Below are positions 32,262 through 53,559 of a stretch of 64,000 nucleotides of DNA, one piece after another. The first letter of the stretch is position 1; every line of letters begins with the position of its first letter. Origin of the DNA: Candidatus Omnitrophota bacterium (GTDB lineage Bacteria; Omnitrophota; Gorgyraeia; Duberdicusellales; 4484-171); contig JAIPGM010000004.1 of NCBI GenBank assembly GCA_021735655.1, positions 1 through 64,000 on the forward strand, read 5' to 3'. The translations under genes and the position numbers were made by a program. The notes under the pieces were generated by a model. The model saw only the letters and a program-made list of their open reading frames with translations. It ran no database searches and was not told the origin of the DNA.

Positions 32262-33378
32262 CGTTCTCTCCTCCTTCTACCGGATAGCCGGCATCTTCCC
32301 AGGCGCCAAAGCCATCCTCAAAAACCTTGATTCTTCCCGGCTTAAAACCATTCTTGATCAAAATTCTTCCGGCACTCATACTGGCATCGCACTTTCCTCC
32401 GTCCCAGGTACCTTCACAATAAAAAACCACCTCTTTATCAGGTGATATTTTATCAAGATTGTATTCTAAATCTGAAAGCGGAATACCCAGAGCGTCTTTA
32501 ACATGCCCGGCCGAATAATCATCCTTATTTCTAACATCAACCCAAATAATATCCTTAAACAATAAAAAGTAATGTTCGTAAGCTTCCTCTAGGTGGACTA
32601 TGGCCGGTTCTTGGCTAGCCGGTAACTTTGGCCCGCGAATTAAAGGATAACCTTTTTTCTCCCAAAAAGAGATACCGTCTAAGTTGTAAGCGTTGTAACC
32701 CTTCTGCCGCAGCTTCTTGGTTATGTAACTGCTTCTATGGCCGGCTCCGCAATAAGAAACTAGAGGTGTTTCTTTGTCGATGTCCTGAAGTTTAGCTAAA
32801 ACATTCTCATCATTGCGGTCGAACCTGCTTTTAGGAAACCATACGGCCTCGGGGATGTGCCGTTCAATATATTCATTCTCTTCCCTTACGTCTAAAATAA
32901 CTATTTTTTGTTCCTTCCCTAACCGTTCATAGAGCTCAGTTGAGCTAAGGCTGGGTATCTTGGAAATGTTTTTCTGGCCAAAGGATGCCTTAGGCCCAAT
33001 CTCAGCTGAAATACTAAATTTTAACTTGGGCTGGGAGAGATCATTAGAAACAAGGTAGATATATTTCTCGTCTTTGCCGGGCTGCTTGCCTTGAGGATTG
33101 TAAATTACTTTTAATTCTGCCTTAACTCCGGCTGGTATTCGGTTAGAAGAAATCTCAGCAGTAGTACAACCGCAGGTAGTATAGACTTTCTCAATAACCA
33201 GATCCTCATCCCCGACATTCTCTACCGTAAAAATCTTCTCTTTTCTCTGGCTTTCCTCTATCTTGCCAAAATCCCAGTAATTTGAATCAACCCTAATATT
33301 GGGGCCGGATTTTCCGGCGGCTTCTTGGCTGAAAAATAAAGAAAAAAACAATAATAAATAAAGCAATTTTTTCATCAA
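32254..33378 (-). CDS. secreted DUF1573 domain + tandem rhodanese-domain protein (putative sulfurtransferase)
   Basis: Signal peptide, then N-terminal DUF1573 (VYTTCGCTT). First rhodanese has the active loop YCGAGHRSS. A second rhodanese-like domain carries YCEGTWDGGKCDASMSAGR. Length 374 aa. Confidence 0.65.
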   Translation of the reverse strand: MMKKLLYLLLFFSLFFSQEAAGKSGPNIRVDSNYWDFGKIEESQRKEKIFTVENVGDEDLVIEKVYTTCGCTTAEISSNRIPAGVKAELKVIYNPQGKQPGKDEKYIYLVSNDLSQPKLKFSISAEIGPKASFGQKNISKIPSLSSTELYERLGKEQKIVILDVREENEYIERHIPEAVWFPKSRFDRNDENVLAKLQDIDKETPLVSYCGAGHRSSYITKKLRQKGYNAYNLDGISFWEKKGYPLIRGPKLPASQEPAIVHLEEAYEHYFLLFKDIIWVDVRNKDDYSAGHVKDALGIPLSDLEYNLDKISPDKEVVFYCEGTWDGGKCDASMSAGRILIKNGFKPGRIKVFEDGFGAWEDAGYPVEGGENDE

Positions 33379-33617
33379 TCAGCTTCCTTTTTCTGCTTTC
33401 CTTCATGACAGCTCTTAGGAACTTTTCCGCTGCCTTTGGCAATCCAGTTTAAGAATCCATCAGTGGGCTTTCTCCTAAGATAATCTCCAATATTCTCCTG
33501 GAAAGTAGCTTTGCAGGCTTGACAATCAAAATAATAAGTTTTTCCCTGATGAGAAAAAAAATATTCCGTATTTTTACTCACCCTTACTCCGCATACGGGA
33601 TCCCGTTTTTTAAACAT
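33375..33617 (-). CDS. YHS-domain protein
   Basis: DPVCGV...GKTYYFDCQACKATF, a canonical YHS/TRASH motif. Length 80 aa. Immediately downstream of copA. Confidence 0.7.
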   Translation of the reverse strand: MFKKRDPVCGVRVSKNTEYFFSHQGKTYYFDCQACKATFQENIGDYLRRKPTDGFLNWIAKGSGKVPKSCHEGKQKKEAD

Positions 33618-33630
33618 TTTTAACCTCCAA

Positions 33631-36111
33631 TTATATTGCCCGCTTGTACCTTCGCATCAACAAAGAATTAGATACTACGCTGACCGAACTAAAGGCCATG
33701 GCTGCGCCGGCAATCATCGGGTTCAATAAAAACCCAAATATTGGATAAAGTATACCGGCAGCAACCGGTATACCGGCAGCATTATAAAAGAAAGCCCAGA
33801 AAAGATTCTGTTTTATCTTCTTCATCGCATAATGCGATAAATCCATAGCCATAACCACATCGCGCAGGTCATCCTTAATCAATACTATGTCGCCGGATTC
33901 AATAGCTACATCGGTTCCGCTGCCGATAGCCAACCCAATATCAGCCTGAGTTAAAGCCGGGGCATCATTTATACCGTCGCCGACCATAGCTACTTTTAAA
34001 CCTTCAGCCTGAAGCTTCTTGACTTCATTAGCTTTATCTTTAGGCAGGACTTCGGCTAAAACCCGCTTAATACCCAGTTGTTTGGCTATGGCTTGGCCGG
34101 TGCGTTTGTTATCGCCGGTAATCATAATCACCTGTTTTTTCATCTGTTTCAATTTAGCCACTGCCGCTTTAGAAAATTCCTTCAAAGTATCGGCTACGGC
34201 GATAATTCCGATTAGCTTATCGGCAGCAGCTACCAGCATAGCGGTTTTCCCTTCGTTCTCTAATTTTTCTAAATCTTTTTCTGCTTTTAAAATATCGATA
34301 TTCTCTTCCTCCATAAACTTTCGATTACCCAGTAAAACTCTTACTCCCTCTACCCGGGCCAATACGCCTTTGCCGGTGATTGAGTTAAAATCAGTGATTG
34401 CTTTTAATTCTATAGCCTTATCTTTGGCTCCTTTTACAATTGCTTCAGCCAGAGGATGCTCAGAACTTTTCTCCACCGACGCCGCTAAACACAATACTTC
34501 ACTATCAGCTTTATCATAAGCTACCACATCTGTAATTTGCGGTTCTCCCTTGGTAAGTGTACCGGTCTTATCAAAAACTATTGCTTGAATTTGATGGGCT
34601 AGCTGAAGGCTTTCGGCACTCTTGATCAATATGCCGTTTTCTGCCCCTAAACCGGTCCCGACCATTACGGCAGTCGGGGTAGCTAAGCCCAAAGCACAGG
34701 GACAGGCAATAATTAAAACGGCAATGAAAATAGTTAAAGCAAAAACAAACCCCTGGCCAACAGCCAGCCAGATAATAAAAGCTAAGATAGCAATTCCTAC
34801 TACTGCCGGCACAAAATAGGCTGATATCTTATCGGCTAATTCCTGAATTGGCGCCTTAGACCCCTGGGCTTCTTCGACCAATCTGATGATCTGAGCCAAA
34901 GCCGTATCTTTGCCGACTTTGGTAGCTTTAAACTTAAAACTACCGGTTTTATTTATGGTAGCTCCGATAACCTGGCTGCCTTTAGATTTTTCAACCGGGA
35001 TACTTTCTCCGCTGATCATTGACTCATCCACGCTGGAATAGCCGTCTGTTACTTGGCCGTCAACCGGAATTTTTGCTCCCGGCCTGACTATGACAATATC
35101 GCCGGCTATTACTTCTTCTACCGAAACCTCCTGCTCCTTACCGTTACGTAAAACCAGGGCTTTTTTCGCTTGAAGGCCCATGAGTTTTTTTATCGCCTCA
35201 GAAGTTTTACCTTTAGCGATTGATTCTAAAAACTTACCTAACAAGATAAAAGCAATCAAGAATCCAGCAATCTCATAATAAAGATTTTTCATATCAAAAG
35301 CAGATGAGCCCGACCAGATCACTATCGAAACATATAAACTATAAAGGTAAGCTGCTCCCACACCTAAAGCCACCAAAGTATCCATGTTCGCAGTATGGGT
35401 TTTAATCACTGCCGAAAAACCTCGAGTAAAAAACTGATAGCCGGCAAACATAATCGGAGTAGCCAGGAGAAACTGAATCAAAGCCATATTATTTACCATC
35501 CAGGAAGCAAGAGGCAGTTTTAACCCCGAACTCATCGCAAAATACATCAGCGGCGCAGCCAGAATAATCGAAACTATAAACTTAAGTTTAAGAATTCTTA
35601 TCTCCCTTTCTCGAGTTTCTTTTTCTAAATCCGGGGTGGCTTTTTCTTGCTCAATCGGCTCATAGCCAGCGGCTTTAATTACGGCTTTAATCTTCTCGGC
35701 AGAAAGAATAGCCGGATCAAATTTAATCTTTGCCCGCTGGTTCACCAATAACTCTTTGCTGGTTATCCCCTTAAGGCTGTTTAGGGCTCCCTCTACCGTG
35801 CTAAGGCAATGAGGGTTGTCCATACCGATAACTTTAAGCTCTAACAGGCCTGCGGTTTTCTTATTGCCGGCTACCTTGTAGCCGGTTTTCTCTATAGCCT
35901 TATGCAAAACCTCCAAATTAACTTTACCGGAATCATAGTCAACATAAGCCTTTTCGCTGGCAAAATTAACCCTGGCTTGTTTTACTCCCGGAGTTTTTTT
36001 CAAGGCACCTTCAATAGTTGCCACACAGCTCGCACAGTGCATACCGCTTATACTGATAACCGTCTTACTTAAACCAGACATAGATTTACCCTCTCCTTTC
36101 GTTATCCGCAA
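33631..36111 (-). CDS. copA: copper-translocating P1B-type ATPase with two N-terminal HMA domains
   Basis: Two HMA CxxC motifs ([15 protein letters not shown]). TM CPC motif ([11 protein letters not shown]). DKTGT phosphorylation site and GDGINDAP. Length 826 aa. Confidence 0.95.
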
Positions 36112-36870: not shown

Positions 36871-37461
36871 TTAATCCTTAGTAACCAAAAAAATAGCGTT
36901 TAAAGCGAAAAGGTTGGGGAAAAACTTTACTAACTTCCTTTTGCCAAGATAAAAGGCACTAGAAACCTTTATCTGTTTTTCAACACAGAAGTCTTTAAAG
37001 TCATTAATGCTCAAAAAATGAACATTGGGTGTATCATGCCAATGGTAAGGTAAAGAAGCGGTTATCGGAACTTTTCCTCTAAAGAAAATTCTAAAGCGGG
37101 CCGGAAAATAGGTAAAATTGGGAAAGCCAACAATTACTTCTTTGCCAATCCTCAAAGATTCAGTCACTACGTAGTCGACTTTTTTAATTTCTTGCATACT
37201 TTGATTCAATATCACATAATCAAAAGCTTTAGCCGGATATCCAGAAAGCCCTGTTTCAATGTCGCCATGGAATACACTTAAATCCTTCTCAACACAATTA
37301 TAAATACCTCTCTCATCCAGCTCAATGCCTTGTGCTTTTACTTTCTTTTCTTTGACTAAAAAATGCAAAAGATCTCCATTGCCGCAGCCAAGATCAAGCA
37401 CCTTAGCTCCGGGTTTAACAATCTTATAGATTATCCTATGGTCCAAACGTATCTTATCCAT
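36871..37461 (-). CDS. metW: methionine biosynthesis protein MetW (methyltransferase-fold partner of MetX)
   Basis: LDLGCGNG motif. Length 196 aa. Sits immediately downstream of metX with overlapping stop and start. Confidence 0.75.
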
Positions 37462-38596
37462 TTTTCACCAAATCATAGGTCTTTCTCAAAAAATTCTTAA
37501 CCAAACGGGTCTGTTCGTCAACCTCCAGCAAAAAAGCATCGTGGCCATAGGTTGACTCTATTTCACAATAAGTAACATCAACTTGTCGAGTTTTAAGCTG
37601 CTGAATTATCTCTCTAGACTGATAAGGCGGATAGAGCCAGTCTGACTTAAAGGCAATAACTAAGAAGCGAGTATCAATTTTGTTACTCTTCGCCACTAAT
37701 TTCCCTTCTGACAAATCAAGATAGTCCATAGCCTTAGTGATATAAAGGTAGCTGTTAGCATCAAAGCGCTTTACAAAGCTATCTCCTTGATATCTCAAAT
37801 ATCCTTCAACTTCAAAGTCAGTCTTAAAACTAAAGCTATAGTTTTTTTCTTTAAGTTTACGGGAAAACTTCTTCTCCATCGACTCATCGCTCATATAAGT
37901 TATATGACCGATCATCCTAGCAACAGACAAACCCCTCTGAGGCTGAGATTTTCCGTAGTAATTACCCTCAAGCCAATCTGGGTCAGCCATTACCGCCTGC
38001 CTCCCAACCTCATCGAAAGCTATTTGCTGAGGAGAATGCTTTAAGGCCGTAGCTATAGGAATTGCCGATGAGATGACTTCCGGATAAGAAGCTGCCCATT
38101 GTAAGACTTGCATACCACCCATTGATCCGCCAGTAACACAAAGTATCTTCTTAATGCCTAAATAATCTATAAGTCTCTTCTGAGCCGCGACCATATCAGC
38201 AATGGTAATTATCGGAAAATCAATACCATAAGGTTTATTGGTCTTAGGGCTAGTTGAAGAAGGCCCGGTTGAGCCTTTACAGCCACCAAGAACATTAGAG
38301 CAAATTATGAAATACTTATCGGTATCAAAAGCTTTGCCCGGGCCAATCATTATATCCCACCAGCCGGGTTTTTCGTCTCCTTGATGAAAACCAGCCGCAT
38401 GAGCATCACCGCTTAAAGCATGGGCAACTAGAACGGCATTGGTTTTAGCTGAATTTAATTCCCCATAAGTTTCATAGCAAAGAGTAATCGGGCCTAGCTC
38501 TCCCCCATTAGCTAGCTTAAGCTGATCAGACTGATCAGCAAAAGTAAAACTCTGCGGTTCAATAATTCCTAAGCTATTTTTAGCATTTTTGCTCAT
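37454..38596 (-). CDS. metX: homoserine O-acetyltransferase
   Basis: Alpha/beta hydrolase of 380 aa with nucleophile GGSMGG. Typical MetX N-terminus and metXW pairing. Confidence 0.9.
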
Positions 38597-38673
38597 AATT
38601 TACTAGATTTACTACTTAATCTGACTAAAGATTATTAGACCACAAGAGCAAACATTGTTCAAGGCCTTTATTC

Positions 38674-39600
38674 TTAGCCCTTAAACAACCAGGTTGAAAG
38701 ATATCTTTCGCCAGTATCGGGTAGAATTGCCACAATTGTTTTTCCTGAGGAATCTTTACGCTTGGCTACCTCTAGGGCCGCCCACATTGCTGCTCCGCTG
38801 GATATACCGACAAAAATTCCTTCCTTCTTAGCTAAAAGGCCAGCAACTTTACCGGCATCAACATGGGACACCTTTATAATTTCATCGATTATTTCTCGAT
38901 TTAAAACTTCCGGGATAAACCCGGCACCGATTCCCTGAATTTTATGCGAACCTGGTTTTTCACCGGAGATAACCGCTGACTCAACTGGTTCAAGGGCGAT
39001 AACCTTTAAAGATTTATTTTTTTTCTTTAAGGCTTCGCCTACCCCGGTTACTGTGCCTCCAGTACCAACCCCGGAAATAAAAATATCAATTTTTCCGCCA
39101 GTGGCTTCCCAAATTTCTTCGGCTGTTGTAATTCTATGAATCTCGGGATTAGCCGGATTATTAAACTGTTGAGGTACAAAACTGTTGGGAGTGTTTTTTG
39201 CAATTTCTTCTGCCTTTTCAACAGCCCCCTTCATGCCTTTAGCTCCTTCAGTCAATACTAATTCTGCTCCAAAAATCTCAAGAAGTTGCCGACGCTCAAT
39301 ACTCATTGTGTCAGGCATGGTAAGAATTAATCTATAGCCCTTAGCAGCACAAACAAAAGCTAAAGCTATCCCAGTATTTCCGCTAGTCGGTTCTACTATA
39401 ACCGAACCCTTCTTGATTAAACCTTTACTTTCAGCATCCGCAATCATTGCTGCGCCAATTCTGTCTTTAACGCTGGAAAGTGGATTAAAAGATTCTAATT
39501 TTGCCAATACTGTAGCCTGGGTATCTTTTGCCAAACGGTTGATTTTCACCAAAGGAGTATTGCCAATAGTTTTCGTAATATCATCTAATATTTTCGCCAC
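38674..39600 (-). CDS. cysK: cysteine synthase / O-acetylserine sulfhydrylase
   Basis: PLP-lysine motif SVKDRIG, plus the glycine-rich loop GTGGT. Length 308 aa. Confidence 0.85.
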
Positions 39601-39617
39601 AATAACCTCCTTAGTTA

Positions 39618-41916
<2,299 letters not shown>

Positions 41917-41922
41917 TTTATT

Positions 41923-42777
41923 TTATAAACTTACCCAGTCCTCAGATACAATATTTCCTTTAATGCCTACCACTACACATTTCAACGGTACTTTTCTTTG
42001 GGCTTGGCCCAACCCTTCTTTTACTAAAGCCAAGAGACCACCACAGCAAGGAACCTCCATAATCATTACAGTTAAAGTATTGATTTTTGCCTCATCAGCC
42101 AAAATTTTTATCTTTTCTAAATAAACCTCTTTATTCGTATCTAATTTAGGGCAAGCAATAGCCAAAGATTTCCCAACTAGATATTTGGAATGAAAATTAC
42201 CCAAGGTATAAGCTACGCAATCAGCCGAAAGCAAAACATCTTTTCCCTGAAAATATGGCGCTCGGGGTGATACCAAATGTAATTGAAGCGGCCACTGCCT
42301 TAAAGCTGACGGTTGCTCTCCTGACACTTCTCCTATGTCTGGCTTATCAGAAAAATCCATCGTTCGCATCCCCGGACAACCCTGATGCGCCGCCACAAGC
42401 TTATCTTTAGCAACCGCAAAACCTTCAGGAATTTCTATGCCCTTTGTTTTTAACACTTCTAAGGCCTGTTTAAGGTATCCTCCTTCTCCGTGAACCTTCA
42501 AATGTTCAAGATGAGCTTTAATAGTACCTGCGCCTTGCTTTACAATATTCTCCATTACTTTTCTTTCGTCGTATTTTTCAGCTTCCCGTTCCTCAATGGT
42601 AATTGCATCTACCGGACAACTTCCGATACAAGCCCCTAGGCCATCACAAAAAAGATCACTAATCAAACGAACCTTTCCGTCAATAAGCTGTAAAGCCCCT
42701 TCGGGGCAATTAGGGATACAATCTCCGCAACCAGTGCATTTATCCAAATCAATTTTTATTATTTTTCTTTTTGACAT
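41923..42777 (-). CDS. 2x[4Fe-4S] ferredoxin-domain protein with Cys-containing C-terminal domain of unknown function
   Basis: CTGCGDCIPNCP and CDGLGACIGSCP ferredoxin motifs. C-terminal CPGM...CPKLD...VPCCGG cysteines. Length 284 aa. Confidence 0.55.
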   Translation of the reverse strand: MSKRKIIKIDLDKCTGCGDCIPNCPEGALQLIDGKVRLISDLFCDGLGACIGSCPVDAITIEEREAEKYDERKVMENIVKQGAGTIKAHLEHLKVHGEGGYLKQALEVLKTKGIEIPEGFAVAKDKLVAAHQGCPGMRTMDFSDKPDIGEVSGEQPSALRQWPLQLHLVSPRAPYFQGKDVLLSADCVAYTLGNFHSKYLVGKSLAIACPKLDTNKEVYLEKIKILADEAKINTLTVMIMEVPCCGGLLALVKEGLGQAQRKVPLKCVVVGIKGNIVSEDWVSL

Positions 42778-42794
42778 GACAACCCTTTTCTAGT

Positions 42795-43238
42795 TTAAAT
42801 ATTATACATAAAAACACTCTTAGCATTCTTATCATTATATCGTTTAACTAAAGTTTCAAGAGTCACTGAATCCAAAGCCTTGATAATACTATTTCCGGTC
42901 TCATCCCAAAGTTGACGAACAATTGATACTGAGGCTGGTTGAAGACTATTATCATCTTGCAAATTATCAATTAAAGTTAAGCCACCTTCAAGAATTTCCA
43001 CTATTTCTCTAACCGTTATCTCTCCGGGAGCTTTCGCTAAAGAATAGCCACCGTGGGCTCCACGAAAAGAATTAACTAACCCTTGGGTCCGTAAAGGAAT
43101 AATGATCTGACTAAGGTACTTTTCAGAAATATCTTCCTTCCGGGCAATGTCTTTTAAAAAAACTGGCCCCTTATCGCAGGCCAAGGCTAAGGCCAGCATC
43201 AACCGAGTTCCATATCGACTACGAGCTGAAATTTTCAT
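42795..43238 (-). CDS. Rrf2 family transcriptional regulator (IscR/CymR-like)
   Basis: N-terminal Rrf2 HTH (SARSRYGTRLMLALA). Length 147 aa. Confidence 0.8.
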   Translation of the reverse strand: MKISARSRYGTRLMLALALACDKGPVFLKDIARKEDISEKYLSQIIIPLRTQGLVNSFRGAHGGYSLAKAPGEITVREIVEILEGGLTLIDNLQDDNSLQPASVSIVRQLWDETGNSIIKALDSVTLETLVKRYNDKNAKSVFMYNI

Positions 43239-43284: not shown

Positions 43285-44013
43285 TCAAATTCTATTACTG
43301 ACCCCTAATTTGTCAAGGAAGTTATCACGACCGATCTCTTCGATTAAAAGAGCCAATCTTTGCCTGGGTTTAGCATTATCTTTGAAAAAATTAACTACCT
43401 TCTCGATTAAAGAAAGCACCTCATCTTCGGTAAAAATTTTACCTAGCTTGAATCCCAACCGGGGAGTTCTCCCTCCACAGCCACCCAAATAAACAGCATA
43501 GCCAACTATTTTCTCAGAATGATTAAGGTCAATCTCACCGTGTATACCAATTTCAGAACTTTCGGATCGAGTGCAACGATTAGGACAACCGGAAATCGCA
43601 ATTTTAAATTTATGCGGTAGATCCAATCCGCAAACAATATTTAACTCCTTTTCTATTCTTTCAGAAAGAGAAAAGGTATTAACCAAACCTCGCTTACACC
43701 AGTTATTACCCGGACAAACAGTTGTAACTCTAAGTCGCGGGCCAGAAGTTCCAACTTTAATTTCAGCGAGTCTTAGCTCTTTCTCCACTTTCCCAATGTC
43801 TTCGAAACGAATAAAAGGAATTTCTACTGACTGACGAACTGTAAAATGAACAAAACTCCTAGCATACTTTTTAGAAATCTGAGAAAGTTTCTCTAGCTGC
43901 TCAGCTGAAGAGTTACCGGCAAGCATCCTTGTACGTAAAGTAAAATAGCCATCTTCTCGGGCCTTCAAAAACCCTCTCTTTTTTAAAGCATCTAGGTCTA
44001 TCTTATCCTTCAT
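43285..44013 (-). CDS. small siroheme/[4Fe-4S] sulfite (or nitrite) reductase, alSiR-type
   Basis: Siroheme-4Fe4S coupling motifs CPGNNWC (C-x5-C) and CPNRC (C-x3-C). Single NiR/SiR ferredoxin-like half domain plus a heme-binding domain. Length 242 aa. Confidence 0.7.
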   Translation of the reverse strand: MKDKIDLDALKKRGFLKAREDGYFTLRTRMLAGNSSAEQLEKLSQISKKYARSFVHFTVRQSVEIPFIRFEDIGKVEKELRLAEIKVGTSGPRLRVTTVCPGNNWCKRGLVNTFSLSERIEKELNIVCGLDLPHKFKIAISGCPNRCTRSESSEIGIHGEIDLNHSEKIVGYAVYLGGCGGRTPRLGFKLGKIFTEDEVLSLIEKVVNFFKDNAKPRQRLALLIEEIGRDNFLDKLGVSNRI

Positions 44014-45290
44014 TAGCTAACCTCTTTTTTTACAAAACAACTTAAAGTCTTTTTAACCGAAATTATTGATTTAGCAATATCAGCTGAACTATGGGCAAAA
44101 GATAAAAAATTTGCCTCATATTCCGAAGGGGCAAAGTAAACCCCTTGCTCCAAAGCAGACCGATAAAATAAACTAAACAAAGCCCTGTCGGAAAACTTAA
44201 AGCTAAACATTGATCGATATCTACTTATCTTTAAATCTATACCATTAGCAACAGCATATTTACTTATCGAATCACAAAACTGCTTAGCGAACTGGTTAAT
44301 TATTTCGTAATTTTTAGCTTCCTGGTTCAAAATTCTCAAGGTTGCAATGCCGGCTTGCATAACAATTGGATTACCGGAAAAAGTTGACGCCTGATAGACC
44401 TCTCCCTGAGGAGCTAAACAATTCATAATCTTAGAGCTGCCACCGTAGGCACCAATCGGTAAACCACCACCAATAATCTTTCCTAAACAGATTAAATCAG
44501 CATTTATGCCAACAGTTTGTAAAAAAGAACCAAAGTTAAACCTAAAACCGGTAATCACCTCATCGGCGACAAGCAAACTATCATGCTTTTCAGTAATCAA
44601 CCGCAAAGCTTTCAAAAATTCTATATCCGGAAGGGTTACTCCGTAATTTCCACCGACTGGTTCAACCAAAACTGCAGCGATTGACTTACCGTACTGCTTA
44701 AAAATGCTATTCAAGGCTTCGGTATCACCATAATCAACAATTAAAGTATGTTTTATAAACTCAAGCGGTACACCTTTGCTTAAAGGAATCTGTCCGGTTG
44801 CCAAGCCCGAACCAGCTTCAGCCAATAAATAATCGGCATGGCCATGATAAGAGTTTTTGAACTTAACTATTTTATCTCTTTGAGTGTAGCCACGAGCTAG
44901 ACGAACCGCACTCATTAAGCTTTCAGTCCCTGAATTAACAAAACGGATCTTTTCGATAGCCGGGATTGCTGCGTTAATGGTTCGGGCAAGCTCAACTTCA
45001 CTTTGATGAGTTGCGCCAAAACCAAACCCTTTAGTTAATTGATTTCTAACTGCTTCAACCACTTCTGGACGAGCCTGACCCAAAATCATTGCACCAAAAG
45101 ATGAACAATAGTCAATAAACTCTCTACCTTCATAGTCGTATATCTTTGAACCATGGCCTTGCTTTAATAATACCGGTTCACCGCCGACATAGGAAAAACT
45201 CCGTACCGGACTATTCACTCCGCCAACTAAAAACTGTTTGGCTTCTTTAAACAACTGACTGTTCTCTGAGTAATATTCTTTCTTGTTCAT
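44013..45290 (-). CDS. hemL: glutamate-1-semialdehyde 2,1-aminomutase
   Basis: Class III aminotransferase with PLP lysine LGKIIGGG. The ORF track start at 45323 probably overextends; the likely start is MNKKEYY at 45290. Confidence 0.9.
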   Translation of the reverse strand: MNKKEYYSENSQLFKEAKQFLVGGVNSPVRSFSYVGGEPVLLKQGHGSKIYDYEGREFIDYCSSFGAMILGQARPEVVEAVRNQLTKGFGFGATHQSEVELARTINAAIPAIEKIRFVNSGTESLMSAVRLARGYTQRDKIVKFKNSYHGHADYLLAEAGSGLATGQIPLSKGVPLEFIKHTLIVDYGDTEALNSIFKQYGKSIAAVLVEPVGGNYGVTLPDIEFLKALRLITEKHDSLLVADEVITGFRFNFGSFLQTVGINADLICLGKIIGGGLPIGAYGGSSKIMNCLAPQGEVYQASTFSGNPIVMQAGIATLRILNQEAKNYEIINQFAKQFCDSISKYAVANGIDLKISRYRSMFSFKFSDRALFSLFYRSALEQGVYFAPSEYEANFLSFAHSSADIAKSIISVKKTLSCFVKKEVS

Positions 45291-46221
45291 ATTTTTTTTG
45301 CCAATAAGCAATATCAGCTGCATGGTAACTGATTATATAGTCTGCTCCCGCACGCTGGATTGCTCCAATAAGTTCGAACACAAAGTCTTCCTCCGACCAA
45401 AAACCCTGTTGGGCGCCAAGCTTAGCCAAGGCATATTCACCACTTACATTGTAAACAGCTAAAGGAAAATTAAATTGCCTTTTAGCCTGAACAATTATAT
45501 CCAGATAAGCTAAAGCCGGCTTAACCATTACAATGCCTGCTCCTTCTTTGATATCTTGTCTTATCTTCTCTAGGGCAGTTTCTCGATCATGATAATCAAG
45601 TTGATAGGCTCGACGATCTCCAAAACGCGGAGCTGAATCAGCGATTTCACGAAAAGGACCATAAAATTGAGAAGCAAACTTTGCTGAATAAGCCATAATT
45701 TTAACCTGATTATAACCATTTTGATCAAGCTTATTGCGAATTGCCCGAACTTGATTCTCGGCCATTGCTGAAGGACAAACAAAATCAGCGCCAGCTTTTG
45801 CATGTAAAAGTGCCATTGCCGCAAGAGCTTTAAGAGTTAGGGTATTATCAATGGCGACTTGACCCTCCAGAACTATTCCACAATGACCATGTGAACTATA
45901 AGCACACAAGCAAATATCAGTAAAAATAGTAAAACTAGGATAACGAGACTTAATAAAACTTATAGCCTCGCAAAGAAAATAATTACTCTCCCAAGCTGAT
46001 TTTCCTCGCCAACTTTTTTGAACTGGCAGACCAAAAAGTAAAATATTCCTAATCCCAAGATGATCAAGATTAACCAGCTCATCCTTTAAGGCTTCTAAAG
46101 AATATTTAAAAACTCCTGACATTGACTTAACCTCATCGGCCGGACCTTCCTTTTCTTTTACAAACAAAGGATAGATCAACTTTGAAAGCGATAAATTAAA
46201 CTTATTACTTTCTTTTATCAT
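45247..46221 (-). CDS. hemB: porphobilinogen synthase (ALA dehydratase)
   Basis: Active-site Lys region VMVKPAL. C-terminal YHAADIAYW. Length 324 aa. Confidence 0.9.
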   Translation of the reverse strand: MIKESNKFNLSLSKLIYPLFVKEKEGPADEVKSMSGVFKYSLEALKDELVNLDHLGIRNILLFGLPVQKSWRGKSAWESNYFLCEAISFIKSRYPSFTIFTDICLCAYSSHGHCGIVLEGQVAIDNTLTLKALAAMALLHAKAGADFVCPSAMAENQVRAIRNKLDQNGYNQVKIMAYSAKFASQFYGPFREIADSAPRFGDRRAYQLDYHDRETALEKIRQDIKEGAGIVMVKPALAYLDIIVQAKRQFNFPLAVYNVSGEYALAKLGAQQGFWSEEDFVFELIGAIQRAGADYIISYHAADIAYWQKKYEQERILLREQSVV

Positions 46222-46954
46222 TTCTAAATTGCCTCACTCTCTCTCTAACTACTTCACCAACGATTAAAACCGCCGGTGGTTTAATTTTCGATTTTTTAGA
46301 TCTTTTTTCAATAGTTCCTATTGTTGCCTGTAAAATCCGCGACTTTTTTGTAGTTGCCCGTTCAATAAAAGCGCAAGGTACTGTATCTTTTCGACCGGAC
46401 TTGCGCAAAGCTTTAACTACATTTCCAATATTAGCTACGGCCATAAGATAAACTAAGGTTTCACAATCAGGGGCATCTATCAAAGCTTTTTTGTCTTTCT
46501 TTCTGCCAGTTAAAATGGCCACCGATGAAATTCGATTTTTTATTGTAAGCGGGATTTCAGCACTTAAAGGCCCTGCCAAAGCTGAAGTTATCCCGGGAAT
46601 AATTTCGTAGTTAACTTTTTTTAAATTAAGATACCTTGCTTCCTCAGCTCCCCGGCTAAAAATAAAAGGGTCCCCCCCTTTAAGCCGAACTACCGTTTTA
46701 AAAGCCAAGGACTTCTTGTATAAAAGCCGATTGATTTGGTTTTGCTCTTTTAAATGTAAACCGTCACTTTTACCAACACAAATCTTCTCACAAGACGGTT
46801 GAACTTCTCTTAATAATTCCGGAGCCGATAAAAAATCATAAAGAACACAATCGGCTGTACGAAGAGCCCTGACTCCCTTTAGGCTAATCAATTCAGGATC
46901 TCCTGGTCCAGCTCCAACTATATATACTTTTCCTTTATTATTGTTAATTGACAT
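46205..46954 (-). CDS. cobA: uroporphyrinogen-III C-methyltransferase (SUMT)
   Basis: VYIVGAGPGDPELISLKG N-terminal SAM motif of class III tetrapyrrole methylases. Length 249 aa. SUMT domain only, with no fused HemD. Confidence 0.85.
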   Translation of the reverse strand: MSINNNKGKVYIVGAGPGDPELISLKGVRALRTADCVLYDFLSAPELLREVQPSCEKICVGKSDGLHLKEQNQINRLLYKKSLAFKTVVRLKGGDPFIFSRGAEEARYLNLKKVNYEIIPGITSALAGPLSAEIPLTIKNRISSVAILTGRKKDKKALIDAPDCETLVYLMAVANIGNVVKALRKSGRKDTVPCAFIERATTKKSRILQATIGTIEKRSKKSKIKPPAVLIVGEVVRERVRQFRNDKRK

Positions 46955-47600
46955 TTAGCCTCCGAATGATTTCCAATAAATCATCCCTTTTTCTAAATAG
47001 CTGAATTGCCAAACGGCCCTGTAAATGGTGTGGTTCAATAATACTAAAAGGAATAATTTGTGAAATGCGTTTTTCTAATCCCAAACGGATTAGAGCTGCC
47101 TTAGCCATAACAACTGCGTCATATTTTCCGCAATCAACTTGGGCCAAGCGTTCTTCAATGTCACCACGAATATCCAAAGCAACTAAATCCTCTCGATAAT
47201 TTAAAATTGCTTGTTTGCGATTTTTGCTACTGGTACCTATTCGAGATCCCTTGGGCAGCGTATCTAAGGTAAAGTTGCCACGAACGACCAAACAATCGGC
47301 CCGGCTTATAGATTTGGTTAGCGCCGCCACTATCAAACTTTTAGGGATTTCATCTTCTAGATCCTTTGCACTATGCACAGCAAGATCTATTTCACCACTC
47401 AATAAAGCTGCTTCAATTTCATAGGTAAAAAAATCACTCCCTTCCTTAAAAGCCAAAGGTGTCTTTTTATCTTTATCCCCTTTAGTCTTAATTACAACAA
47501 CCTCAAAGTTAAAAAACGGCAAAAGCTGTTTAACTTCCTCAACCTGTTTAAGCGCTAACGAACTCGGCCGAGTTCCTATTTTGATATAGCGAATCATCAA
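46944..47600 (-). CDS. hemC: hydroxymethylbilane synthase, truncated (domains 1-2 only, lacks cofactor-binding domain 3)
   Basis: Aligns to E. coli HemC residues about 1-238 (IGTRPSSLALKQ, IGTSSKNRKQA, YDAVVMAKAALIRLGLE). Stops 11 nt into cobA. No region equivalent to Cys242/domain 3. Confidence 0.7.
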   Translation of the reverse strand: MMIRYIKIGTRPSSLALKQVEEVKQLLPFFNFEVVVIKTKGDKDKKTPLAFKEGSDFFTYEIEAALLSGEIDLAVHSAKDLEDEIPKSLIVAALTKSISRADCLVVRGNFTLDTLPKGSRIGTSSKNRKQAILNYREDLVALDIRGDIEERLAQVDCGKYDAVVMAKAALIRLGLEKRISQIIPFSIIEPHHLQGRLAIQLFRKRDDLLEIIRRLNVN

Positions 47601-48561
47601 TCTGCCTCCTAATAGCTAACACCTGTTCTTCTATGGCCGCTTCAGCTAATTTTACATAGCTGCTCATAGATTGATTATGTCTTTTGCAAAGATCACTTAA
47701 CGAATCAAGGTTTTTTAAAAAAACGCCTGGAATTTTTGTCAACTCAAAATCTATATCTCGCGGTAAAGCTAAATCATAAACATAAAGTGGCTTTTTACGC
47801 AACCGAATAACCTTGACTAATAACTTGCTACTCAGCACCTGGTGAGGGCTTGAAGTTGCACTCACTAAACAATCTGCCCCTAAAAGCTCTTCTGATAAAT
47901 TATCTAGTAGAAAAACTTTGGCAGAATTTTTCCTAGCTAGACTTTGAGCCTTTTTTATCTTCTTTTTAGCGAAAAAATATAGTTCGAGATCAGTAAATTT
48001 ACTTTCTGAAAACATCTTAGCTATTTTTCCAGTACCGACAATAAGCACTTTTTTCTTACTAGCTAATCCGGTATTAAAAATAAGATCTTCTAAAACAATC
48101 TCGGAAATATTGTTTTCGTTACCGAATAAATCTAGCTGTTGACGTAAATCGTAGCTCGAAGTTAAAACTCCTCGCCAAAGATTCTTAATTGGCCAAGAAA
48201 AACTATCCCTCCTAACCCAAGAATCTAATTGCTCAAGAATTTGCCTTTCTCCGACAATTTGTGACTCAAGACCGCAAGCCAACCTCAAAGCTTTACGGAT
48301 AACACCCTGTGTATCCTGTATAAAGTGGGCTTTTTCAAAAATCGGATGGAACTGGCTCTTAAAATTTGCAATATCTTTTATTAATAGCTCTGTGTTTTCA
48401 GCAAGACCATAAATTTCTACTCGATTGCAAGTAAATAGCACCTCGGATTCAAAAACTGATTCTTTCCAGAACCGTACAATCTGATCACGCCGCAGGCAAG
48501 CATGTTCCCTTAGCGATAAAGGTGTATTCTTATAGTCTATTGCGATAGAGTAAAAATTCAT
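47548..48561 (-). CDS. hemA: glutamyl-tRNA reductase (short form)
   Basis: N-terminal catalytic domain with the Cys-containing motif (EVLFTCNRVEIY) and an NADPH-binding GxGxxA/G (IVGTGKIAKM). Only 337 aa, so probably lacks most of the C-terminal dimerisation helix. Confidence 0.8.
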   Translation of the reverse strand: MNFYSIAIDYKNTPLSLREHACLRRDQIVRFWKESVFESEVLFTCNRVEIYGLAENTELLIKDIANFKSQFHPIFEKAHFIQDTQGVIRKALRLACGLESQIVGERQILEQLDSWVRRDSFSWPIKNLWRGVLTSSYDLRQQLDLFGNENNISEIVLEDLIFNTGLASKKKVLIVGTGKIAKMFSESKFTDLELYFFAKKKIKKAQSLARKNSAKVFLLDNLSEELLGADCLVSATSSPHQVLSSKLLVKVIRLRKKPLYVYDLALPRDIDFELTKIPGVFLKNLDSLSDLCKRHNQSMSSYVKLAEAAIEEQVLAIRRQIDDSLYQNRNSAEFVSA

Positions 48562-49003
48562 CCCACTTCTCCTTGAGATAATTTTTTAAATCTCGGGATA
48601 AAACCGGATCCTTGCCATCAGTATACACTGCGATTAAAGCTTTTTCCGTTCGCAGAACAGCTGGTGAAATAAAATCACTCAAAAGAGGTTTGTCTACAAC
48701 ATTAACTGAAATGCCCTTGACTTTAGCCCAATTGCTCACCTGTTCATTTAGGAAAGAATCATCGGTTGCCGAGATAACTAAAGTTGCTCCGAAGATGTCT
48801 GATTCTTTAGCTTTGCGCTCCAACCATTCAATAGCCCCCTGCTTGGCTAACTCTCTTAACTCTACTGTGACTTTAGGCGCAATCAGAGTAATTCTGGCTT
48901 CAGCCAAAAGCAAAGCCTCAATTTTACGCTGGCCTACTTTACCACCGCCAACCACGATGGCTTTCTTGTTTTTAATTTTAAGCGCAACTGGTAAATAATT
49001 CAT
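48530..49003 (-). CDS. sirC: precorrin-2 dehydrogenase / sirohydrochlorin ferrochelatase (siroheme synthase N-terminal domain, SirC/Met8-like)
   Basis: Rossmann motif KKAIVVGGGKVGQRK. Length 157 aa. Confidence 0.65.
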   Translation of the reverse strand: MNYLPVALKIKNKKAIVVGGGKVGQRKIEALLLAEARITLIAPKVTVELRELAKQGAIEWLERKAKESDIFGATLVISATDDSFLNEQVSNWAKVKGISVNVVDKPLLSDFISPAVLRTEKALIAVYTDGKDPVLSRDLKNYLKEKWDEFLLYRNRL

Positions 49004-49015
49004 AAACTCTTTAAC

Positions 49016-49741
49016 TTATATCCCATCTCCGTCTAAATTAGACTTTAACGGCCGAGTGTGGATTCCACACTCACCACCGCATTTGCTAGTTCCAATCCAA
49101 CGTCCGGCCCGCTCATTGTCGTCATTAGTGATTCTGGTGCAAGGAGAGCAACCTAAAGAACGATAACCCTCCTTATAAAGAGGGTTCACCTTAACTTCAT
49201 ATAAGGCTAAATACTGCCAAACTTCTCTTTCTTTCCAAATGAGAATCGGATTAAGTTTTATCAATCCTTTATCGCGTTCCTCAACTTCCTTGTAATCGGT
49301 CCGGGTTCGACCCTCAGTACAACGCAATCCAGTAACCCAACAGGTAACTTTCATCTCATCCACCGCTCTCTTCACCGGCTCAACCTTTAAAACCTCACAA
49401 CATTGATCAGGATCAACATTGTATAATTCGGGCGATATCTCTGAATCATTCTTATATACTGCCAATTCCGGATAACGGACAACTTCTTGATTCATAAACT
49501 CAACTGTTTCTTTGGGCTTGAACCGAGTGGTTACAATAAACCCTTTTATTTTTGGGTCAACCTTCTTTGCCAAATCCCAAACCACAACTGAATCCTTACC
49601 TAAACTGTTAGCAACAACCAGGCCATCACCATATTTATCATATGCTTCTCTTATAAGTTGTAAGGATCGATCCACCTTTTGCTTAAAATTTAAAGTTTCA
49701 ACCAATACTTTCAAATCGTCTTGTGTGCCTAACAAACTCAT
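49016..49741 (-). CDS. cysH: adenylylsulfate (APS) reductase, thioredoxin-dependent, Fe-S type (CysH family)
   Basis: PP-loop-like SLGKDSVV. C-terminal ECGIH catalytic motif. CC...CxxC cysteines (DQCCEV; GCSPC) typical of 4Fe-4S APS reductases. Length 241 aa. Confidence 0.8.
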   Translation of the reverse strand: MSLLGTQDDLKVLVETLNFKQKVDRSLQLIREAYDKYGDGLVVANSLGKDSVVVWDLAKKVDPKIKGFIVTTRFKPKETVEFMNQEVVRYPELAVYKNDSEISPELYNVDPDQCCEVLKVEPVKRAVDEMKVTCWVTGLRCTEGRTRTDYKEVEERDKGLIKLNPILIWKEREVWQYLALYEVKVNPLYKEGYRSLGCSPCTRITNDDNERAGRWIGTSKCGGECGIHTRPLKSNLDGDGI

Positions 49742-49788: not shown

Positions 49789-50010
49789 TTAGATTTGATA
49801 CTCTATTTCCTTAATTCTTCCGAATTTTACCTTATTCCAAATTCGTTCATGTATATAGTAAAGGAATATCTTTACTGTATTTGCGGCAATGCCCACTACC
49901 AATGACTCTTTAACGTCTTTGGTATAAATATAGATAGCAATTATCGTAGTCAAAAAAGCAATTACCCGCCAAGTTAAAGATTTGACTAAAGATCGTTTTG
50001 GATGTTCCAT
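49789..50010 (-). CDS. small membrane protein (DUF2061-like)
   Basis: 73 aa with two TM helices and an LTWR motif. Confidence 0.35.
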   Translation of the reverse strand: MEHPKRSLVKSLTWRVIAFLTTIIAIYIYTKDVKESLVVGIAANTVKIFLYYIHERIWNKVKFGRIKEIEYQI

Positions 50011-50270
50011 TTACTCACTAAATAGTATAAAAATGTATTTTATACACTACCTATTCTATCAAAATACTAGCTAATACTTTCAAAAAATATAGGCGCACAA
50101 ACGCCTTTTTTAATCACTATCAATGCAATCTCTTTGATAGAGATTAAAATATACCATATTATTAAGAATTGTCAAGGATAAATTTTAAGTTTTTTAAACC
50201 TTGTTTCTAGTTGCTAAGTAGCCCAAATATGGTATTATTAAGGATAATAATCAAAATTAACCCCTGGGGA

Positions 50271-50924
50271 ATGAAGAGCATTAGCAATTACAACTTATAT
50301 TTAGTTACTGGTGAGCAACGCTCAGCTACAAAAAAAACCCTAGAAGTAGTGAGGTTAGCCATTAACGGCGGGGCAAATATTATCCAGCTACGTGATAAAA
50401 ATATGGCCCGGTCTGAGCTAGTCAGCTTAGGAAAAAAACTCTCGACATTAGCTAAGAGTAAGAATATAGTATTTATTGTTAACGACGACCCGGATTTAGC
50501 CGCTGAGCTAGATGCTGACGGAGTGCACCTAGGACAAACTGACATAGAAAAATACTCGGTAGAAAAAACAAGAAAACTAATCGGTAGGAATAAAATTATT
50601 GGCCTATCAACCCATTCCCTAGAACAAATAGAACAAGCTAATAAGCTTGATATTAATTACATTGCCTTTGGACCATTATTTGAAACTAAAACTAAAAACT
50701 ACTCAATTGGAACTAGAGATTTAACTAAAGCTTTATCGTTATCAAAATTTCCTTTAGTTTGTATTGGTGGTATAAACTCAAATAATATCGAAGAAGTTTT
50801 AAAGCTGGGCGCAACTAATATTGCTATGATTCGAGAAATTACTGAAAGTCAAGATATAGAAAAAAAAGTGAAACAGCTAAAAAGCCTGATAACCAAATAT
50901 AAAAAAAATGCAGATAACAATTAA
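50271..50924 (+). CDS. thiE: thiamine-phosphate synthase
   Basis: LYLVTG...IIQLRDK motif. The ORF track starts at 50211, but the likely start is MKSISNY at 50271. First gene of thiESGHF. Confidence 0.8.
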   Translation: MKSISNYNLYLVTGEQRSATKKTLEVVRLAINGGANIIQLRDKNMARSELVSLGKKLSTLAKSKNIVFIVNDDPDLAAELDADGVHLGQTDIEKYSVEKTRKLIGRNKIIGLSTHSLEQIEQANKLDINYIAFGPLFETKTKNYSIGTRDLTKALSLSKFPLVCIGGINSNNIEEVLKLGATNIAMIREITESQDIEKKVKQLKSLITKYKKNADNN

Positions 50925-51108
50925 CGGGAAAAAAGAAATTATCGATAACCCTAAATCTCTCCTTGAGCTTATCGGTGAAAAAAAACTAAATAAAGAAAAA
51001 ATGGTAGTTGAGTTAAATCTCAAGATTATTCCCCGTGACAATCTTAAAAGTACTCAAATTCAAGAAGGAGATTCAATTGAATTTGTTAGCTTCGTAGGAG
51101 GAGGTTAA
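50908..51108 (+). CDS. thiS: sulfur carrier protein ThiS
   Basis: 66 aa beta-grasp protein ending in GG. Lies between thiE and thiG. Confidence 0.8.
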   Translation: MQITINGKKEIIDNPKSLLELIGEKKLNKEKMVVELNLKIIPRDNLKSTQIQEGDSIEFVSFVGGG

Positions 51109-51882
51109 ATGTCGGATTCATTAATAATCGCCGGACAAGAAATCAAAAACCGCCTTTTCGTGGGGACCGGTAAGTTTCCCAACAAACCAATCATAAAGGA
51201 AGTTTTAGAACAGGCTAAAACAGAAGTTGCAACCGTTGCTTTGCGCCGAATTGACCTAGAATCAAAAGAAGATAATATTCTTGATTACATTCCAACTAAC
51301 TGCACAGTTATGACTAACACCTCTGGTGCAAGAAACGCCCAGGAAGCAATCCGTATTGCTAGATTGAGTAAAGCTGCTGGCTGTGGAAATTGGATAAAAC
51401 TAGAGGTAATCGCCGACAATAAACACCTCCTGCCTGACAATCTAGAAACTTTAAAAGCTACTGAAGTTTTAGCCAAAGAAGGTTTTATAGTCCTGCCCTA
51501 TATGAGCCCTGATTTATCAGTAGCTAAAAAATTGATCGAGGTCGGAGCTGCTGCAGTTATGCCACTGGGCTCACCAATCGGCTCAAAACGCGGAGTAAAA
51601 ACTGCGGAATTAGTCAAAATTCTAATTAAAGAAATTGCTGAACCAATTATCGTTGACGCTGGAATTGGTTATCCATCAGAAGCAGCTTACTGTATGGAAC
51701 TAGGCTGTGCGGCGGTCTTAGTTAATACGGCCATAGCCACTGCCAAAGATCCGGTTAAAATGGCTGAAAGCTTCAACTTGGCAGTCCGTGCCGGCCGCCT
51801 GTCTTATCTTAACGCAACTAAAAGCTCTGGACAGGCATCAGCATCTTCTCCGCTTACCGGTTTCCTGCAAACAAGTGAATAG
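51109..51882 (+). CDS. thiG: thiazole synthase
   Basis: TIM-barrel of 257 aa. Conserved Lys Schiff-base region (NTSGARNA) and typical ThiG length. Confidence 0.9.
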
Positions 51883-51884
51883 CT

Positions 51885-52955
51885 ATGAGTTTTTATAATA
51901 TTTATCACAAATACAAAAACTGCTCCTTTGAAGAACTACCCAACCAAGAGCTAACCAAGCTTCTTTCTCTTGAGGCTGAAAAATCTTTAGAAGCAATGGC
52001 TCAAAAAGCCAAAACTTTGACCTTGCAGAATTTCGGAAAAACAATTAGCCTCTATACCCCACTCTACCTATCAAACTATTGCGAGAATGAATGCCTTTAC
52101 TGCGGATTCAATGCAAACAATAAAATTCCAAGAAGGAAACTAAAAATTGATGAGCTAAAAAAAGAAGCTAAATTCATCGCTAAGACCGGCCTGCAACACA
52201 TACTAATTCTTACTGGCGAATCGAAAAAGCTAAGCCCACTCTCCTACATAAAAGAATCTGTAAAAATACTAAATAAATTATTTAGTTCAATATCAATTGA
52301 AATTTACCCCTTAAGTCAAACAGAATATAAAGAACTTATCGCCGCGGGTGTCGACGGTCTAACAATTTATCAAGAGGTATATTCTCAATCAGAATACAAA
52401 AAACTCCATCCGGCTGGTCCAAAACAAGATTATCAATTTAGACTCGATGCTCCAGAAAGGGCTGCCCGAGCCGGTATACGTACCATTAACATCGGAAGCC
52501 TGCTAGGGCTAGCTCCTTGGCGAAAAGAAGCTTTTTTCATGCTAAAGCATGCTGAATACCTGCAAAATAAATACCCAGAAATAGAAATGAGCATTTCCTT
52601 ACCGCGGCTAAGACCTCAATTTAATAACTTTCAAACTCCTTATGAGGTAAGTGATAAAAACATCGTCCAAATAATTACTGCCGCCAGGATATTTATGCCA
52701 CGCTTAGGAATTACCCTATCAACCCGGGAAAATTCTCAGCTTCGCAATAACCTAATTAAATTAGGCATAACTAAAATGAGCGCTGGTTCAACCACTGCTG
52801 TCGGCGGTCATACTTTGGAAAAAACTTACATTAAAAATTCACTCCAGTTTGAAATTTCTGACAAACGAGATGTTTCTCAAATCAAAATAATGTTGCTTAA
52901 AGAAGGATACCAACCAGTGCTAAAGGACTGGGTCGGAGCACTGCAAAATGAATAA
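51885..52955 (+). CDS. thiH: 2-iminoacetate synthase (tyrosine lyase, radical SAM)
   Basis: [10 protein letters not shown] CxxxCxxC motif. Length 356 aa. Sits in the thi operon. Confidence 0.85.
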
Positions 52956-53559
52956 CTTTGAAAAAGAAATCATTAAGTACTTTGGTAAAGATCAATTTAA
53001 AAAAATTCAATCAGTAACCATCGGCATTGCTGGGCTTGGTGGCCTTGGCTCAAACTGCAGCCATAATCTTATCCGCTGCGGTTTTAAAAAACTAATAATT
53101 GTTGATTTTGATAAGGTTGAGCTTTCAAATTTAAACCGCCAATTTTACTTCTTAAATCAAATAGGCAAGCGCAAAGTTGATGCCCTTAAAGAAAATCTGC
53201 TTAAAATTAACCCCGACATCAAAATCACGACTTATTGTGAAAAATTAGAAAAAAACAACCTAAAAAATATTTTTAAAGGTTGTTCTATTATCATTGAAGC
53301 TTTCGATAAAGCCGAATACAAAAGCTTAATCGTTGAAACTTTCCTCCCTACCGATAAGTTTATTGTTTCGGCCTCAGGCTTAGCCGGATATGGAAAAAGT
53401 GATGAAATAAAAATTCACCGCCTAAGAAAAAATCTGGCTATTGTTGGTGACCTTAAGTCCGAAGCCAGCCAAGACTTGCCACCGCTTTCTCCACGGGTAA
53501 ATATTGCGGCAGCTAAACAAGCTGATGTGGTATTAAACTATATATTAAAAAACATTTAA
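52948..53559 (+). CDS. thiF: ThiS adenylyltransferase (E1-like, ThiF/MoeB family)
   Basis: Gly-rich nucleotide loop GLGGLGS and the LSNLNRQ motif. Length 203 aa. Confidence 0.75.

Follow-up and report, generated by a model that had tools for sequence, protein, structure and literature searches.

What a sulfite reductase of 242 residues does in a bacterium, and why the genes for its cofactor lie directly beside it, is the question raised by a gene train in a 64-kb stretch of DNA from a Candidatus Omnitrophota metagenome-assembled genome (contig JAIPGM010000004.1, positions 1 to 64,000; the window hereafter). On the minus strand between positions 36871 and 50010, Pfam and NCBIfam searches identified 16 co-directional genes over about 13 kb, with no intergenic gap larger than 78 bp and a gap of 338 bp after the last gene, metW (Table 1). 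Curated NCBIfam cut-offs were exceeded by CysH, CobA, HemB, HemL, MetY, CysK, MetX and MetW. We conclude that the locus is very probably an assimilatory operon leading from adenosine 5'-phosphosulfate (APS) to sulfide and on to cysteine and methionine, which co-expresses the cofactor supply of its own sulfite reductase (SiR). An earlier reading of the same DNA, here called the original prediction, had proposed an assimilatory train from CysH to MetW with the siroheme genes placed between CysH and the sulfite reductase. Both proposals were borne out, and the genes it named are all present on one strand with strong family matches. The span of 43285-49741 that it gave does cover CysH to SiR, but Rrf2, MetY, CysK, MetX and MetW fall outside it (36871-43238), and the train is headed by a DUF2061 gene that lies beyond 49741.

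The two motifs that first drew attention to the SiR, CPGNNWC (residues 100-106) and CPNRC (residues 143-147), are present and together form a CX5C-Xn-CX3C pattern, in which all four cysteines (C100, C106, C143 and C147) are kept in each of 16 orthologues. Searched against the PDB, the sequence matches best, at E values of about 1e-26, to the C-terminal halves of three F420-dependent sulfite reductase (Fsr) entries, 7NP8, 7NPA and 9TN7. In this alignment, R27, R95, K135 and K137 correspond to R355, R423, K460 and K462 of MjFsr, which are its sulfite ligands, and C147 corresponds to the siroheme-bridging C472 (PMC10229431). Additionally, R60 aligns with MjFsr R388, a position that marks assimilatory enzymes and is occupied by threonine in DsrA (PMC10229431). 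All six of these SiR residues are invariant among the 16 orthologues. An AlphaFold model of the protein (pLDDT 78, pTM 0.71) gave the sulfite reductase domain of Fsr as its best match, with a TM-score of 0.78 and an E value of 2e-16. The alignment leaps from residue 159 to residue 170 of the query over the inserted 2x[4Fe-4S] domain of Fsr (chain residues 485-544), and no Fer4 match was obtained for the SiR with Pfam.

On these features, the SiR is a whole enzyme built from one repeat, with the architecture of the alSiR or Group I Dsr-LP class, whose defining features have been described (PMC3448663, PMC6286981), as the original prediction had suggested. The possibility raised there that it could be a fragment of a larger split gene was rejected, as the length is conserved in 72 loci (230-257 aa) and the downstream neighbor varies among Rrf2, MetY, CysK and an efflux gene. 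Like Desulfovibrio vulgaris DVU_1597, Methanosarcina P590 and the alSir of anaerobic methanotrophic archaea (ANME), the protein comprises one repeat of about 220-240 aa with a coupled siroheme-[4Fe-4S] motif, retains all of the Arg/Lys sulfite ligands and has no ferredoxin domain (definitions from PMC3448663, PMC6286981). The likeness is one of architecture, whereas by sequence the Omnitrophota SiR is a clade of its own. Identity is 53-75% in 70 Omnitrophota loci and drops abruptly outside the phylum, to no more than 39%. The clade is covered by a single 50%-identity cluster representative at 433 bits, with the next representative at 179 bits and 31-38% identity. The SiR of the window matches with 100% identity a hypothetical protein from a Candidatus Omnitrophica MAG, encoded on a contig of 159,873 bp. 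Its relatives with lengths of 231-251 aa number more than 500, and those that are named are almost all Omnitrophota; the nearest small relatives outside the phylum are 212-241 aa long, 31-38% identical and mostly unnamed.

The comparison with the C-terminal domain of Fsr (7NP8, 7NPA), which offers the best match in both sequence and fold with the same Arg/Lys set, an equivalent of Arg388 and the bridging cysteine, also suggests how the enzyme may work. One protomer of Fsr holds the siroheme, and the [4Fe-4S] cluster coupled to it is bound by the other protomer (PMC10229431). By analogy, the SiR should therefore be an obligate homodimer with two self-complementary siroheme-[4Fe-4S] sites, and the Fsr-like residues and fold make such a dimer likely. 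Unlike Fsr, the SiR lacks the N-terminal F420H2 oxidase half and the inserted 2x[4Fe-4S] domain, and it is a bacterial protein inside a cys/met operon. Its electrons would come from a soluble low-potential carrier, given that the protein contains no ferredoxin domain.

A different role for proteins of this kind has been put forward, in which the SiR would be a dissimilatory or reversible DsrA-like enzyme of energy metabolism that reduces sulfite or oxidizes sulfide. The COG2221 'DsrA' hits of 23 Omnitrophota genomes, and those of Ca. Omnitrophus magneticus SKK-01, were read as dissimilatory or reversible (PMC10066038 and its supplement), such 240-aa proteins carry the JGI label 'dissimilatory sulfite reductase (desulfoviridin) alpha/beta subunit', and the DsrA and DsrB models do match the SiR weakly. 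However, the features of DsrAB, namely an alpha/beta pair, ferredoxin domains, the DsrB motif CXnCCX3C, the DsrA threonine and the DsrC/DsrMK partners, are all missing. The SiR is a single 242-aa repeat without a ferredoxin domain, its motif is of the aSiR type CX5C...CX3C, and Arg60 occupies the threonine position. DsrB, DsrC and DsrMK were found in none of about 70 neighborhoods, where the SiR always lies among cysH, hem genes, cysK and metY, including that of SKK-01 (locus L051). This context contradicts a dissimilatory reading of the Omnitrophota COG2221 hits, and we regard such a role for the SiR as extremely improbable.

The assimilatory operon is instead a recurrent arrangement. A conservation scan with one genome per species yielded 70 Omnitrophota loci, in which synteny was mapped by tblastn; the full gene order was counted in the 45 of them whose upstream flank exceeds 7.5 kb. 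HemL lies immediately before the SiR in 63 of the 70 loci, so the arrangement is not due to chance. The full order CysH-SirC-HemA-HemC-CobA-HemB-HemL-SiR was present in 37 of the 45 loci, and three further loci (L051, L059 and L064) have the same core with divergent or fused genes, for a total of about 40 of 45. The stretch from CysH to SiR is therefore a phylum-wide conserved cassette. In L059, a single 693-aa open reading frame (ORF) at 5014-7095 (+) combines a CysG-B-like protein, HemA and a short HemC, which may be a genuine fusion of three enzymes or else an artefact of the assembly or reading frame. DUF2061 precedes CysH in 28 of the 37 complete cassettes, and a literature search on the function of this domain yielded nothing relevant. 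MetY-CysK(-MetX-MetW) forms a second module, which often adjoins the core (MetY and CysK are adjacent in 23 loci) and sometimes lies upstream of it.

Table 1. Genes and predicted control elements of the gene train, in order of transcription (positions in the 64-kb window)
Feature	Position	Strand	Evidence
Promoter-like TTGACA-16-TATATT with TG, upstream of DUF2061	50148..50175	-	Consensus scan, 11/12 match
Perfect inverted repeat CTATCAA-N10-TTGATAG, 8 nt past the -10 box, over the start region	50117..50140	-	Sequence reading
GC-rich hairpin followed by a T-run in the 5' leader	50091..50106	-	Same stem in L003
Candidate operator, 25-bp imperfect palindrome aCTAsTAAnnTGATAGannTAGTAG	50047..50071	-	Motif search
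DUF2061 small membrane protein, 73 aa, head of cassette	49789..50010	-	Pfam PF09834, E 6.5e-15
CysH, Fe-S-type (APS-reductase-like) sulfonucleotide reductase	49016..49741	-	PAPS_reduct, E 2.6e-40; NF002537, 171.6 bits (cut-off 154)
NAD_binding_7 / cysG_Nterm protein (CysG-B/Met8p-like), 157 aa	48530..49003	-	Profile matches and CysG alignment
HemA, glutamyl-tRNA reductase, short form, 337 aa	47548..48561	-	GlutR_N and Shikimate_DH
HemC, two-domain hydroxymethylbilane synthase, 218 aa	46944..47600	-	Profile matches; aligns with E. coli residues 4-208 only
CobA/SirA, uroporphyrinogen-III C-methyltransferase	46205..46954	-	NF004790, 253 bits (cut-off 198)
HemB, porphobilinogen synthase	45247..46221	-	NF006762, 379 bits (cut-off 297)
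HemL, glutamate-1-semialdehyde aminomutase	44013..45323	-	NF000818, 521 bits (cut-off 398)
SiR, single-repeat siroheme-[4Fe-4S] sulfite reductase, 242 aa	43285..44013	-	NIR_SIR_ferr and NIR_SIR
Promoter-like TTGACA-16-TAGAAT inside the 3' end of the SiR gene	43289..43316	-	Consensus scan
Rrf2-family regulator, CymR-like	42795..43238	-	Pfam Rrf2, E 9e-34; NF047409 CymR, 135 bits (below cut-off 195)
2x[4Fe-4S] ferredoxin domain and AF_0155-type C-terminal domain, 284 aa	41923..42777	-	Profile and PDB searches
PP-loop ATPase (ThiI-like) and NFACT-R_2 domain	40927..41916	-	Profile matches
MetY, O-acetylhomoserine sulfhydrylase (homocysteine synthase)	39618..40913	-	NF006096, 733.9 bits (cut-off 726)
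CysK, cysteine synthase A	38674..39600	-	TIGR01139, 467 bits (cut-off 351)
MetX, homoserine O-acetyltransferase	37454..38596	-	NF001209, 523 bits (cut-off 331)
MetW, last gene of the train	36871..37461	-	TIGR02081, 222 bits (cut-off 189.5)

At the entry to the pathway, the CysH carries an Fe-S signature composed of CC at residues 113-114, CSPC and a C-terminal ECGIH, and its orthologues are 76-87% identical. These are the motifs of APS-type reductases, from which we infer, in keeping with the APS reductase first proposed, that it would prefer APS over 3'-phosphoadenosine 5'-phosphosulfate (PAPS); the APS-specific model TIGR02055 scores the protein at 137.5, below its cut-off of 235.3. Two variants of the cassette bear on where the pathway begins. 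CysD and a CysN/APS-kinase fusion directly follow CysH only in L051 (962-4983), L059 (1535-5030) and L061, and these cassettes are the truly self-contained version. A PiT/PHO4 permease similar to Bacillus subtilis CysP, together with a second CysK, is inserted between CysH and the hem genes in 12 loci, including L054 (3175-5058). Both variants confirm the assimilatory purpose of the cassette and indicate that the version in the window starts at APS. The CysH of the CysD/CysN-C-bearing cassettes differs from that of the window, with 31% identity. A gene of the TauE/SafE sulfite-exporter family is also found near the cassette in L054 and L023.

The siroheme branch is encoded by a canonical CobA and by the 157-aa protein that had been called SirC. 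This protein does belong to the precorrin-2 dehydrogenase family, but its residues fit the bifunctional CysG-B/Met8p enzymes and not a monofunctional SirC. It aligns without gaps to residues 1-144 of Salmonella CysG and carries K27, N101, D104-x-P106, P133 and R137 of that enzyme; across 53 orthologues, conservation reaches at least 95% for K27, N101, D104 and P133. D104 and its loop have been tied to bifunctional dehydrogenase/ferrochelatases, whereas the monofunctional SirC of Bacillus has a serine and an SSFS loop (PMC7018833). The protein is therefore probably a precorrin-2 dehydrogenase and sirohydrochlorin ferrochelatase rather than a Bacillus-type SirC, and a second activity as ferrochelatase would explain the absence of SirB/CbiX. 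It differs from CysG-B and Met8p in that it stops at residue 157 without the C-terminal helical domain (TIGR01470 is matched at positions 1-140 of 205 only) and is not fused to a methyltransferase. With these two proteins, the branch to siroheme is probably complete.

Taken together, the locus would operate as follows. A first module (50010 to 43285) would be started from the promoter predicted at about 50175-50148. CysH would reduce APS, made elsewhere in the genome, to sulfite, and the 242-aa SiR would reduce sulfite to sulfide, with the six genes between them supplying its siroheme. HemA, HemL, HemB and HemC would lead from glutamyl-tRNA to hydroxymethylbilane, CobA would methylate uroporphyrinogen III, and the CysG-B-like protein would oxidize precorrin-2 and probably insert iron, such that apoenzyme and siroheme supply are transcribed together. 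In a second module (43238 to 36871), which also includes the Rrf2 regulator, the ferredoxin-domain protein and the PP-loop ATPase, sulfide would be converted to homocysteine by MetX/MetW and MetY, and to cysteine by CysK.

Several observations weigh against this assimilatory reading. Among the ORFs of 100 aa or more in the 64-kb window, the only part of the genome searched for sat and cysDN, none was identified as a sulfate transporter gene, sat, cysDN or cysC. The activation step of complete assimilatory sulfate reduction, as in KEGG M00176, is thus absent within the window. The description of the locus as a self-contained route from sulfate to sulfide therefore does not apply here, and CysD with CysN/C occurs only in the three relatives named above. 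In the source data of PMC10066038, the KEGG Orthology (KO) lists do include K00958, under two entries labelled only '231' and '221'. The SiR occurs without adjacent hem genes in five of the 45 loci, and the linkage of cysH, hem genes and SiR is accordingly strong yet not obligatory. HemC has neither domain 3 nor a conserved cysteine, and the tetrapyrrole trunk is for that reason not demonstrably functional as encoded. hemD is absent from the cassette in all relatives (about 56 loci, with a gap between HemC and CobA of at most 97 bp), and no HemD was found among the ORFs of at least 100 aa of the window. The NCBIfam nitrite and sulfite reductase models score the SiR alike, all below cut-off. 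Finally, the promoters and operators are predictions from consensus and motif matches.

The similar scores below cut-off mean that a preference of the SiR for sulfite or nitrite cannot be read from its sequence, and they bear on the proposal that it serves mainly in sulfite detoxification or nitrite reduction, with the assimilatory context being secondary. The nirB and NirA models of NCBIfam score as high as the sulfite reductase models, the nearest relative with a solved structure is Fsr, which detoxifies sulfite, group II Fsr is a nitrite reductase, and siroheme reductases often act on both substrates. However, the SiR retains both of the arginines that are replaced in group II Fsr, and its partners are CysH, an intracellular source of sulfite, and the sulfide users CysK and MetY, with nitrate and nitrite genes absent nearby. 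A main role in detoxification or nitrite reduction is thus very unlikely.

In its tetrapyrrole trunk, the locus departs from the original prediction, in which a complete siroheme pathway ran from glutamyl-tRNA. Not only is hemD missing, but HemC, HemA and the protein called SirC are all C-terminally short. HemA has no dimerization domain, with orthologues of 306-337 aa, and all 54 sequences compared retain the catalytic Cys45. HemL probably starts at an ATG at about 45290. The HemC orthologues are 207-241 aa long in all 54 loci and lack domain 3, and the alignment of orthologues shows conserved catalytic cleft residues (Asp and Arg) and no conserved cysteine. In hydroxymethylbilane synthases (HMBS), a cysteine in domain 3 carries the dipyrromethane cofactor. 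Compared to E. coli HemC (PDB 1PDA), the Omnitrophota protein has domains 1-2 and the cleft residues but neither domain 3 nor the cofactor cysteine, and all solved HMBS structures are 310-389 aa long, in contrast to its 218 aa. It matches positions 20-223 of the 241-position short HMBS model PRK01066 (NCBIfam). A motif similar to GGCxxP(I/V)(G/A) was not present in 1.33 Mb of Omnitrophota DNA, and literature searches for a natural HMBS without domain 3 and for hemC/hemD of Chlamydia gave nothing relevant.

hemD itself is probably located elsewhere in the genome, as K01719 appears beside hemB, hemC, hemL, cobA and cysH in the same KO lists, in the two entries labelled only '231' and '221'. A further proposal is that Omnitrophota make uroporphyrinogen III through a non-canonical trunk, in which a two-domain HMBS works without tethered dipyrromethane, possibly without a canonical HemD, and siroheme is the sole tetrapyrrole end product; we consider this speculative and unlikely.

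The hem genes of the cassette could also represent a general tetrapyrrole trunk that serves heme and cobalamin as well and merely lies beside the cys genes. Heme and cobalamin pathways are reported in some Omnitrophota (PMC10066038), and the five loci that keep the SiR without adjacent hem genes would fit such an arrangement. However, CysH and SiR enclose the trunk genes, and the siroheme-specific genes for CobA and the CysG-B-like protein are interspersed among them, in fixed order and with overlapping frames. Additionally, hemE, hemN and cbi genes are absent from the window. A weaker point is that K01599 (hemE) was not found in the examined part of the KO lists that have hemB, hemC, hemL and cobA. 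A general trunk is accordingly doubtful, and we favor hem genes dedicated to the SiR.

The placement of siroheme-branch genes in sulfate assimilation operons is known already, as are small sulfite reductases. The last steps of siroheme synthesis lie beside the reductase pathway in the cysH operon of B. subtilis, with ylnD/E/F, and in nirBDC-cysG of E. coli. The fpr2-cysIXHDNYZ cluster of Corynebacterium glutamicum includes the SirB-like CysY, and the last steps of the cofactor are co-located and co-regulated with the sulfite reduction pathway (PMC1266029). The Omnitrophota cassette shares with these three operons the co-location of the last cofactor steps with a sulfite or nitrite reductase pathway. 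It differs in that the entire trunk of HemA, HemL, HemB and HemC is added between CysH and SiR, and in that the reductase is a 242-aa single repeat instead of a CysI/CysJ or NirA-type enzyme. Its distinctive features are a trunk and branch bracketed by CysH and a one-repeat SiR, conservation throughout the phylum, the minimal set of enzymes and the HemC without cysteine.

Downstream of the SiR, the 284-aa protein with a ferredoxin domain had been put forward as a partner to be expressed with the reductase. A specific link was not borne out, as the protein keeps 62-80% identity in several phyla of bacteria and archaea and, in the candidate division WOR-1 (L086, 4612-7387), lies between Rrf2 and the hybrid-cluster protein Hcp. 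As it is present in only five of the 70 Omnitrophota loci and is highly conserved in phyla where it lies beside Hcp, a role as dedicated donor of the SiR was rejected. It is a generic low-potential electron carrier that the SiR could possibly use. A PDB sequence search with its C-terminal domain gave no informative match, only ferredoxin domains. The PP-loop ATPase, located between this protein and MetY, has CxC and CxxC cysteines and an NFACT-R_2 domain of an RNA-binding type; it may be a sulfide-dependent thiolation enzyme, and a PDB sequence search with it returned only a marginal match to MnmA.

Control of the operon appears to begin further upstream than anticipated, as the predicted promoter region lies upstream of 50010 and not of 49741. 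The promoter-like sequence found there is the likely start of module 1, and a second one inside the SiR gene is a possible start of module 2; the two suggest two transcription units. The perfect inverted repeat close to the first promoter is a candidate repressor site, with a similar repeat at the equivalent place in L003, and the leader hairpin may possibly act as an attenuator. Of 39 loci, about 29 carry the 25-bp palindrome motif upstream of DUF2061. It occurs once in the 64-kb window and not at all in 10 shuffles, and TACTA-N15-TAGTA occurs in nine of 39 loci compared to at most four in shuffles. An Rrf2 operator is plausible. An Rrf2 of the type in the window follows the SiR in 17 loci, and in 23 loci a distant Rrf2 type is found before DUF2061 or CysH. 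A scan of the whole window with Rfam at gathering thresholds returned no match, and thus no known riboswitch controls the operon.

Genes for cofactors that consume sulfur are abundant around the operon. Those within 15532-24301 and 50211-53559 include a thiE-thiS-thiG-thiH-thiF cluster, which is divergent, NifS/NifU and a cluster for biotin (bioA/D/C/H-like/F/B and birA), and a rhodanese-domain protein is encoded at 32254-33378. Immediately downstream of the operon (24364-36111) are genes for the handling of copper and metals, which encode a P-type ATPase that has two HMA domains, a protein of the YHS/cupredoxin kind and an RND efflux set. In L001, these genes come straight after the SiR.

The role of classical alSiRs has been described as unclear, as has the electron donor of the class, whereas the Omnitrophota SiR, placed between cysH and cysK/metY, has a clear assimilatory setting and is apparently the sole sulfite reductase of its operon. 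The cassette thus offers a tractable system in which to test this class. COG2221 'DsrA' hits that have been taken as dissimilatory in Omnitrophota, including those of Ca. Omnitrophus magneticus, are argued to be assimilatory instead. Finally, the cassette reveals minimal tetrapyrrole enzymes throughout the phylum, and the two-domain HemC without cysteine among them is at odds with the textbook mechanism of HMBS.

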